Source: a virus (taxonomy: Duplodnaviria; Heunggongvirae; Uroviricota; Caudoviricetes). Taken from it: 4,814 nucleotides of DNA. The DNA lies in the IMG/VR virus record IMGVR_UViG_2529293173_000003, one strand, 5' to 3'. Below, in pieces: positions 1 to 3,000 of the stretch (the stretch's first letter is position 1; every line of letters begins with the position of its first letter). Position numbers: made by a program.

Positions 1-3000
1 TACATCAAACGCCGCGACCAGGAGAACGAGGAGATTGCGCTTACGGTTGGGAAGCTGCGTGTTGAGCTTGAAGCAGCAAAATCAAAACTCAACGAGCAGC
101 GTGAATATTACGAGGGAGTAATCGCGGATGGAAGTAAGCGCATAGCAGAACTGGAAAAACAATGCGCCGAATGGGAGCGAAAAGCATTAAGCAACTTTGA
201 AGAGTGTGCTGCGATGGCTGAACGTATCGAAGAGATGCAGACAAAATCTGCACCAGATTCGTTTGGCATCATCGGTGAAAATATTCGAACACAGGACAAT
301 CGAATAACGTCAGATCCCATGTTTTGTGTGTATCAAAAGCGCGAAATCGCTGTTGATGCTGATTATGACCATGACCGGATTGTCTGGGTTGACGAAGATG
401 GCAATGAAGCCAATAAACGCCATAGTCGTCGTCTCGAGCTACTTCATGAAAACTTTCGAGAGCCACCAGAAAAATGGCGGCGCGTTGCTGTGAAAGATAT
501 TGATGAATTCGTTACCTGCTGTTTCACCGAACAGGGTTGTAAAGACTACCTGGCAGTCAATGGTCACAATCTTCGCTTGCCATTTATATATGTAAAAAGC
601 GGTTTCAGGAACGCTGAATATATCGGCATAAGAAACTGGCTTGCTGGCATTCGCATCAAAGGAGAGTGATATGGCGTTAACACACCGCGAACTCTGTCAG
701 ATTGCGTACAAGTTCCTTAAGCGCAACGGTTTCAAGGTTTGTTTTCATGACCGCTTTATAGCTGTAACCAGTACCGGAGAACAGCCAGATGCTATGGGAT
801 TCAGAAATTCAGCATCATGCCTGATTGGCGAAATGTTCTCGTGCTGACTTGTTGGCAGATAGAAAAAAGCGTTTTCGTAAAAATCCGTCTCTTGGAATGG
901 GCGACTGGCGATTCTTTATTAGTGAGCCGGGAATTATTTCAATTGAGGATTTACCACCTGGCTGGGGATTACTTCACGTTGTTAACGGAAGAGTACGGAA
1001 AGTACATGGGTGGCCCAAGGGTAATTGCTGTTGGGGTAATCCTGACGATAAGCCATTTACTGGAAATAAGCAGGTTGAATGCGATTACATGTTGTCTGCA
1101 TTAAGGCGCATGGAGTTGAGAGGGCACCTTAATGAAATATATGACGGTGTAATTGTTAATAAGAAAGAAGGAAACGCGGCATGACCACTATTACCGACAA
1201 AGAACTGATTAAAGAAATCAAAGAGCGCATAGGCAGCTTGGACGTTCGAGACAATATTGAGCGCCGTGCTTATGAAATTGCACTGGCATCGCTGGAAGCA
1301 GAACCGATAGCGTGGGAATGCGGTGAAAACATAATCCTGTTTAACCCTGACACAGTTGAAGCATACGCAAAACGTGCGGAAATATCACCTAAACCACTAT
1401 TCTCCGCGCCGCCAGCGCTGGTAGTGCCTGATAAGTTGCCGCGTGAATACAGAAACGGTTGGCCTCTTGCGTATAGTGATTATGCTGAAGGCTGGAACGA
1501 CTGCCGCGAAGCCATGCTTCAGGGAGATAAATCATGATTAATCGTATCAAGCTGGAGCACATCCTCGAATATGCCAGGCAGCAGAGGCATATTGGTCAGC
1601 ATTGTAAAATTCCACCAGGAGATATGGTTGAAATCATGGAGATTGCCATGCGCAAGGCTGGCAACTCTCCGGTAACTCCGGATGGTTGGATAAGCTGTAG
1701 TGAGCGAATGCCGAACGATAAACAGTATGTTTGGTGTTGGGGGAAGTCTTACGGCTGGACTGAGTGCGATACCTTCGAAGGGTATTACGATTGTTCGAGA
1801 AACAAATGGTGGGCAGTTACTGACAATGGGGAAGAACCGGCATCGAAAGTAACCCACTGGATGCCGCTACCGGAGCCGCCGCAGGAGGTGAAATGATGAA
1901 TTGGCCTGAAGCATTCACCGCAGTTGGAGTTGCAATAGCGGTGGCATTTATTCTGTATTCGCTTTTCCGCTGGGGATAAAGGAATGTTCGCTCTGATTCA
2001 ACGTGGTCAGATATACACGGACAGAGCCGGATACCCTGTGGTGATTACTCGCAGTACTCAGCACTCAGTGTTCTTTCGACGCATGGACGGGCGCTCCGGA
2101 CGGGTACGCATTGGTGAGTTCAACAACCTGTTCGAACATATTGACCAACAGGAGTACCGCAAAATTCTGGCGGGCACTGAGCAGGAAATGCGCCTGAAAA
2201 AATTACGCGCAATGCAACGGAGGTGATACATGCATACGGCTTTTGAGTTCTGGGTTCGCAAGACATTCGGCAATCGCTACGACCTGACCCGTGATGTCGA
2301 CGGCTTCTACTGCCGTGAAGTTGTGAAACGAATGTTTGACGTGTGGTGCCACTGCCGTGGATGAAAGTTTTATGAGGTTGGCATGCAGACAATCATCTAT
2401 CAGATAACCCCCAGCAAATGGTGTACGGAGAGAGTCCTTATTGCATCAACAGGGCTAAAGCCCGGCACCATCGAGCGGGCCAGAAGAAAGTCATGGATGC
2501 AGGGAAAAGAATACCGCCATTACGCTGTAGAAGGTGATCCTGGGCATTACAGTGAATGCCTGTACAACATCGAAGAAATTATGCGATGGATCGAAAACCA
2601 GAAACAACCAGGTGCCAAAAATGCAAGTTCCGGTTAACCTGTTAATGCTCCTGGACGTCTGGGAGGTTTAATGAGTAACGCATCATACCCGACAGGCGTT
2701 GAAAACCATGGCGGATCACTCCGTATATGGTTTCACTATAATGGCAAACGTGTCAGAGAAAACCTCGGTGTTCCTGACACAGCCAAAAACCGGAAGATCG
2801 CTGGTGAACTTCGCACTTCCGTTTGTTTTGCAATCAGAATGGGGAGTTTCGACTACGCCGCGCAGTTCCCTAATTCCCCTAACCTGAAACACTTTGGTCT
2901 GGGAAAAAGAGAGATAACCGTTAAGGCACTTTCGGAAAAATGGTTGGACCTTAAGAAAATTGAGATTTGTGCGAATGCACTTAACCGTTACCAGTCAGTA

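Follow-up and report, generated by a model that had tools for sequence, protein, structure and literature searches.

A probable pseudogene of a small PD-(D/E)xK-fold phage protein in the early-left region of O157:H7 lambdoid prophages

Among the described proteins closest to the one considered here is MmcB, an SOS-regulated endonuclease of the PD-(D/E)XK type that shields Caulobacter against mitomycin C (PMC9578287). The Pfam family of MmcB-like proteins (PF06319, formerly DUF1052) is related to the archaeal Holliday junction resolvases (PMC1189080, PMC3424549), and its members are mostly chromosomal genes of α-proteobacteria (PMC3424549). Here we describe a locus from a 4,814-nucleotide stretch of viral DNA (IMG/VR record IMGVR_UViG_2529293173_000003; hereafter, the window), which covers the early-left accessory region of an O157 lambdoid phage. 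Positions 671-1184 of the window are, with high confidence, a pseudogene; the intact gene encodes a small, stand-alone PD-(D/E)xK-fold protein of 171 aa, whose nearest characterised relatives are MmcB-like proteins (PF06319) and Hjc-like nucleases. A single mutation replaced AGA by T at position 826, with a net loss of 2 bp. The same event removed the codon for Glu53, the catalytic glutamate of the E-x-K motif, and shifted Lys55, together with the C-terminal two-thirds of the protein, out of frame, and translation started at ATG 671 ends after 58 aa. The allele is fixed in the O157:H7 prophage family that shares this integrase module (VT1-Sakai/Sp15-type, integrated at mlrA/yehV).

The broken gene lies in the ea region, in the order gam, bet, exo, ea22-like gene, broken gene, hypothetical gene, DUF551, DUF4222, xis, and int, where the genes from the ea22-like one onward are those of the window, and all of its features described below are on the plus strand. 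The Shine-Dalgarno sequence of the ancestral gene (AAGGAG, 659-664), which can be read directly from the sequence, precedes an ATG at 671 that is one base downstream of the TGA (667-669) closing the upstream ea22-like ORF. From this start, frame 2 is open over 671-847 (stop codon at 845-847) and encodes an N-terminal remnant of 58 aa, in which the homology to the intact protein covers residues 1-52, the final six (GEMFSC) being out-of-frame read-through. The remnant includes the PD-element residues E37 (779-781) and D40 (788-790), and it is known in annotations as a ‘hypothetical protein’ (WP_001304101.1 or WP_001356547.1). Frame 3 is open from TTG at 825 to TGA at 1182-1184 and thus overlaps frame 2 by 23 nt (825-847). 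Its segment 828-1184 is the C-terminal remnant, equivalent to A54-A171 of the intact protein plus the stop codon, with the K55 codon AAA at 831-833. The earliest ATG in frame 3 is at 897, and no SD-like sequence was found in the window upstream of either 825 or 897. The asymmetry that was pointed out in the initial annotation, namely a well-placed SD for ORF 671-847 and none for the frame-3 ORF with its first ATG at 897, is therefore present in the sequence.

At the distal end, frame 3 and the next gene (1181-1537) share the four bases ATGA at 1181-1184, which contain the stop codon of the former and the start codon of the latter. This arrangement suggests that frame 3 was formerly translated within an operon, and that the ancestral gene for the putative nuclease may once have been translationally coupled to its downstream neighbor. 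The neighbor encodes a hypothetical protein of 118 aa, and it is intact in the window and called by PGAP, while its equivalent in phage Stx2a_WGPS6 (locus L005, 1082-1438) is labelled as a pseudogene. A frame-1 ORF at 817-1104 (95 aa) was rejected as a gene, as it is a chance ORF overlapping the conserved frame-3 coding sequence. No Rfam families were found anywhere in the window.

Comparison with related phages showed that the two ORFs are parts of one gene and allowed us to define the lesion at base resolution. In alignments with PEC240, GF4, phage 1717, phage 2851, and P7, the relatives have CTGATAGAGGCG where the window has CTGATTGGCG. The lesion is the replacement of AGA by T at window position 826 (net -2 bp), as seen from CTGAT-AGA-GGCG in phage 1717 versus CTGAT-T-GGCG in the window; at 825-827, the ancestral GAT-AGA-GGC has become GAT-T-GGC. 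This change destroys codons I52 and E53 (ATA GAG) and shifts the reading frame. Over the whole gene, the lesion is the sole difference between the window and Stx2 phage 1717, while P7 differs by the lesion and four further sites and has an ORF of the full 171 aa. The relatives encode a single 171-aa ORF, MALTH...SCLIEAKCSRADLLADRKK...GNAA, which is intact in PEC240, GF4, phage 1717 (ACI43103.1), and P7 (Upf89.0, AAQ07564.1), as well as in many other E. coli prophages and plasmid-prophages. A megablast search of window positions 600-1250 against complete E. coli genomes returned 2455 records, in which the matches of about 97% identity consistently exceeded the query in length by 2 bases.

The profile searches led to the same picture. 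The N-terminal piece corresponds to positions 62-113 of phrog_9263 and the C-terminal piece to positions 113-230 (E 2.5e-90 for the latter), and in phrog_631 the respective positions are 21-73 and 75-201. The E-values of these PHROG matches range from 1e-25 to 1e-90 for both pieces. Since both pieces fall on neighboring stretches of the same profiles, their pairing is not due to chance. The truncated 58-aa form also has a PHROG of its own (phrog_16308). These results bear out the proposal of the initial annotation that the overlapping ORFs derive from one frameshifted gene. The comparisons it had suggested gave consistent answers: both peptides fall into the same PHROG families rather than unrelated ones, their homologs are single continuous ORFs, and at the same locus the related prophages have a continuous 171-aa ORF with two more bases at 826. 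The initial annotation also held that removal of one base would fuse the two frames. This is correct as a conceptual operation, as a one-base deletion inside the overlap yields a 170-aa fusion, but the past event that it implies, a 1-bp insertion, did not take place, the actual change being the net 2-bp deletion AGA to T.

The family to which the intact protein belongs is large and mostly consists of single proteins of approximately 150-200 aa. We collected 316 homologs by word index and 3220 clusters at 50% identity (E <= 0.001), most of which are of this size and span the whole profile. Standard domain libraries scarcely recognize it. Neither the two fragments nor the intact E. coli protein gave a usable match in Pfam or NCBIfam; the intact protein had no Pfam match at E <= 1 and did not reach the PF06319 gathering threshold (22 bits). 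With the PADLOC-DB defence models, no match at E <= 0.1 was obtained for the intact protein or three divergent relatives, and the exclusion or anti-plasmid role considered plausible in the initial annotation is a hypothesis. More remote comparisons pointed to known nucleases. A profile of close homologs alone matched PDB entry 3dnx at E 0.25, while a deeper profile of distant representatives matched it at E 4.8e-5, with D and IExK-SR-DF-AD aligned. The 3dnx structure is an MmcB-like member of PF06319 (its fragment scores 109 bits), and the phage family shows both homology and whole-domain structural similarity to this bona fide member. Among 40 divergent members of the phage family, 14 had weak Pfam matches to PF06319 (best E 2.9e-4) and 21 had weak matches to Hjc (best E 1.3e-4). 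Several of the fold matches in BFVD are phage proteins named MmcB-like.

We then considered the fold and active site of the intact protein. In an alignment of 28 homologs (58-87% identity), residues G36, E37, D40, E53, K55, R58, D60, D64, and K67 are invariant. Among 40 more distant representatives (33-54% identity), D40 and D60 remain invariant, and E37, P39, E53, K55, D64, and K67 are conserved in at least 90%. An AlphaFold (AF2) model built from the 28-sequence alignment (mean pLDDT 81.5, pTM 0.77) predicts a helix at 5-18, strands at 23-26, 41-45, and 48-54, a helix at 58-65, and a strand at 80-85, in that order. The modelled arrangement is the α-β-β-β-α-β core of the PD-(D/E)xK superfamily, in which D40 starts strand 2 and E53 and K55 are placed at the end of strand 3, that is, at the conserved catalytic positions. 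The initial annotation had recognized ...GEQPDAMGF... as the PD element of such a fold, and this assignment agrees with the invariance of D40 in both alignments and with the predicted core. Its choice of LLADRKK as the second half of the motif proved mistaken, as this half is LIE53-A-K55, invariant in close homologs and at least 90% conserved in distant ones, located 13 residues past D40 and exactly on the lesion. The catalytic DxK reading of LLADRKK was rejected because D64 and K67, though conserved, are modelled in or just after helix 58-65, downstream of strand 3.

The fold, the conserved active site, and the placement of the gene among phage recombination genes lead us to propose that intact members are most likely Mg2+-dependent DNA endonucleases acting on branched or damaged DNA, a prediction from sequence and model. 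Alternatively, the intact family might have kept the PD-(D/E)xK fold as a non-nuclease, for instance a DNA-binding regulator or an anti-defence decoy. Some proteins with this fold are indeed non-catalytic, and the PHROG families are labelled ‘unknown function’. We nevertheless consider this alternative quite unlikely, since E37, D40, E53, and K55 are all conserved down to approximately 33% identity, which is the usual signature of retained catalysis.

Whatever activity the intact members have, the window copy no longer encodes the catalytic residues in one polypeptide, as the E53 codon is deleted and K55 is in the other frame. The copy is therefore a pseudogene of a PD-(D/E)xK family member and not a functional member. 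With translation from ATG 671 stopping after 58 aa, and with a downstream part devoid of its own ribosome-binding site, the locus most likely makes no active enzyme, as judged from its sequence. The mutational inactivation listed in the initial annotation among several options is thus the one that agrees with the loss of the E53 codon and the displacement of the C-terminal part. The C-terminal remnant has accumulated no further mutations relative to phage 1717; consequently, decay cannot be read from drift, and this observation fits a recent event without proving loss of function.

It may be asked whether the split is tolerated or even useful, with the 58-aa peptide and/or a C-terminal product restarted at TTG 849 or ATG 897 keeping a non-catalytic role, for instance in binding DNA or in interfering with the intact paralog of another prophage in the same cell. 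In O157:H7, the frameshift allele is widespread and has become fixed, the genomes apparently harbor a further, intact copy in a second prophage, and annotation pipelines call the fragments as proteins (the 111-aa cluster P0061 with 645 members and the 95-aa WP_077249448.1). However, the internal starts are not preceded by an SD, and the split falls between strand 3 and helix 2, inside the β-sheet core of the predicted fold, which makes independent folding unlikely. Hitch-hiking in a clonal pathogen lineage explains the fixation equally well, and other phages have different truncations, as neutral decay would predict. A retained role of the fragments therefore appears highly improbable, and the locus is better described as an ordinary, lineage-fixed pseudogene, a status that is already public in one phage entry (depositors of Stx2a_WGPS6 had annotated the same 514-nt span as a pseudogene).

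The distribution of the frameshift allele was analyzed by searching complete E. coli records with an 81-mer of the window spanning the lesion, where identity of at least 99% was taken as the window allele. The window allele was found in at least 215 complete records, and in all nine sampled rows with this allele the carriers were O157:H7 or O157-type isolates (from cattle, beef, and human sources). The other approximately 740 matching records were below 99% identity to the 81-mer, and all of the full-length matches sampled from these records are two bases longer. In IMG/VR, 12 contigs have the frameshift allele versus 43 with the intact-site allele; 40 of the latter were assessable, 34 of them having the full 171-aa ORF and six being truncated otherwise. 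Among phage records, the frameshift allele occurs in VT1-Sakai, YYZ-2008, phi330, and Stx2a_WGPS6. Thus the intact form is the norm, and the two-ORF layout is a derived state of one lineage. The O157:H7 genomes in the sampled rows list two matching places each. In the near-sister strains 140 and 138, the broken allele is located near 1.78 Mb and the intact allele near 1.96 Mb, which suggests that one O157:H7 genome carries both alleles in different prophages.

These data bear directly on the sequencing indel considered in the initial annotation, in which case an error of sequencing or assembly would have split a gene that is whole in the organism itself. Assembly indels are common, and outside the lesion the gene does not differ from the intact allele of phage 1717. 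On the other hand, the change is a delins (AGA to T) rather than a homopolymer slip, and the identical allele recurs in the complete-genome records, which come from many laboratories, in the 12 IMG/VR contigs, and in separate phage records including VT1-Sakai, YYZ-2008, and Stx2a_WGPS6. The assemblers also appear to resolve both alleles in one genome, given the 1.78 and 1.96 Mb positions of the two alleles in strains 140 and 138. This recurrence across records excludes a sequencing artefact for practical purposes, and we assign it a minute probability.

The last option of the initial annotation, a programmed +1 ribosomal frameshift within 825-847 yielding a full-length functional protein, has the 23-nt overlap and the required shift direction in its favor, but its probability is negligible because homologs are overwhelmingly single continuous ORFs with the two-frame layout unconserved (34 of the 40 assessable intact-site IMG/VR loci have the 171-aa ORF), because by reading the overlap has no prfB-like slippery codon with an upstream SD, and because the GAG codon of E53 is physically missing from the DNA, so that a shift gives ...LIGE-CSR... 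or ...LI-AKCSR... but never LIEAK, and the E-x-K motif cannot be rebuilt from any shift point.

Homologs of the gene occupy the same slot in many Stx phages. Others are found in P1/P7-type plasmid-prophages (Upf89.0), and one accompanies ParB and STY4528-family genes in an integrative element. The nin region of Morganella prophages also has a homolog, located between ninB and rusA. In lambdoid and P1/P7-type phages, the gene is a mobile accessory early gene, and it behaves as one that moves together with recombination functions. The presence of RusA in the Morganella context indicates that the family protein is not simply the only junction resolvase of the phage.

Disruptions of this gene are not limited to the window lineage. 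Phage 2851 (locus L008, 372-776) and one IMG/VR locus (L049) have a 5-bp deletion (CAGGT) leading to a 134-aa product, and other disrupted variants of 84, 115, 144, and 161 aa were observed (IMG/VR loci among L035, L041, L049, L057, L060, and L061). Several independent disruptions in other phages suggest that the gene is dispensable for the prophage. A more far-reaching interpretation is that the intact members of phrog_631/9263 (a family with more than 3000 clusters at 50% identity and no Pfam model) might be phage-borne, MmcB/Hjc-like structure-specific nucleases dedicated to phage-host or phage-phage conflict, for example by cutting competing replicons or by processing recombination intermediates of the Red system. 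In that case, the repeated, independent inactivation in O157 Stx prophages may be due to selection against a product with a cost to poly-lysogens, and not to neutral decay. We regard this interpretation as speculative and rather unlikely.

The lesion also has consequences for public annotation. At two loci of other strains with the intact 171-aa gene, PGAP has labelled its first 179 nt as a ‘frameshifted’ hypothetical pseudogene and left the full ORF uncalled (L002, 3072-3250; L003, 3029-3207; both orthologous to window 671-847). This mislabelling likely results from the use of the truncated 58-aa O157 protein (WP_001356547.1 / WP_001304101.1), now part of the reference protein sets, as the reference, and it looks like an annotation error propagated across many genomes. 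Recognition of the 171-aa form as ancestral would allow hundreds of records to be corrected.

Several observations concern the opposite part of the window. Over its full length, the window is 100% identical only to a circular molecule of 47.9 kb, ‘plasmid unnamed2’ of O157:H7 strain PNUSAE145590. The identity of the top chromosomal matches stops at 4015, and in one prophage checked (L001) mlrA is located just beyond int. The window thus appears to show, in the region 3958-4240, an excised circular phage junction (attP), in which int is followed by a DinI-like gene and then by the tail-fibre end of the phage. The DinI-like gene (82 aa, WP_001261937.1) is at 4241-4489, just past attP, and belongs to the other end of the phage genome. 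Direct repeats AAAGTGTCCCAT(G/A)(T/C)ATGCCCCAT at 3920-3942, 4126-4148, and 4137-4159 flank the divergence point near 4015, one copy being inside the 3' end of int, and a GC-rich palindrome TGTCACGTTACGCGCGTGACGCAACA at 3998-4023 lies on the breakpoint itself. These elements are plausible integrase arm sites and the att core.

The dead copy in the window offers no lesson on mechanism. The modest addition made here is a predicted fold and a probable activity, those of an MmcB/Hjc-like PD-(D/E)xK nuclease, for a large phage family of ‘unknown function’. The true orthologs and family members of the window gene are ACI43103.1 of phage 1717, Upf89.0 of P7, and PHROG 9263/631, from which the window copy differs in being broken and not intact. 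The MmcB-like proteins (PF06319, ex-DUF1052; 3dnx SPO1766; Caulobacter MmcB) resemble the family in size (approximately 150-170 aa) and in having a single domain. However, the E. coli phage protein is only 24% identical to 3dnx, and the C-terminal motifs GWGLL, KPF-x-NKQ-x-E, and SALRR are specific for the phage family. In addition, the MmcB-like genes are mostly chromosomal, whereas the family of the phage gene is phage- and plasmid-borne in Enterobacterales and beyond. With the Hjc and AHJR-like proteins (PF01870, PF18743), the family shares the minimal PD-(D/E)xK core and the E...D...ExK active site, although the matches are weak and the E. coli member has none. The similarity to Hjc extends to the location of the phage gene among recombination genes, while RusA coexists with the homolog in the same nin region of Morganella.
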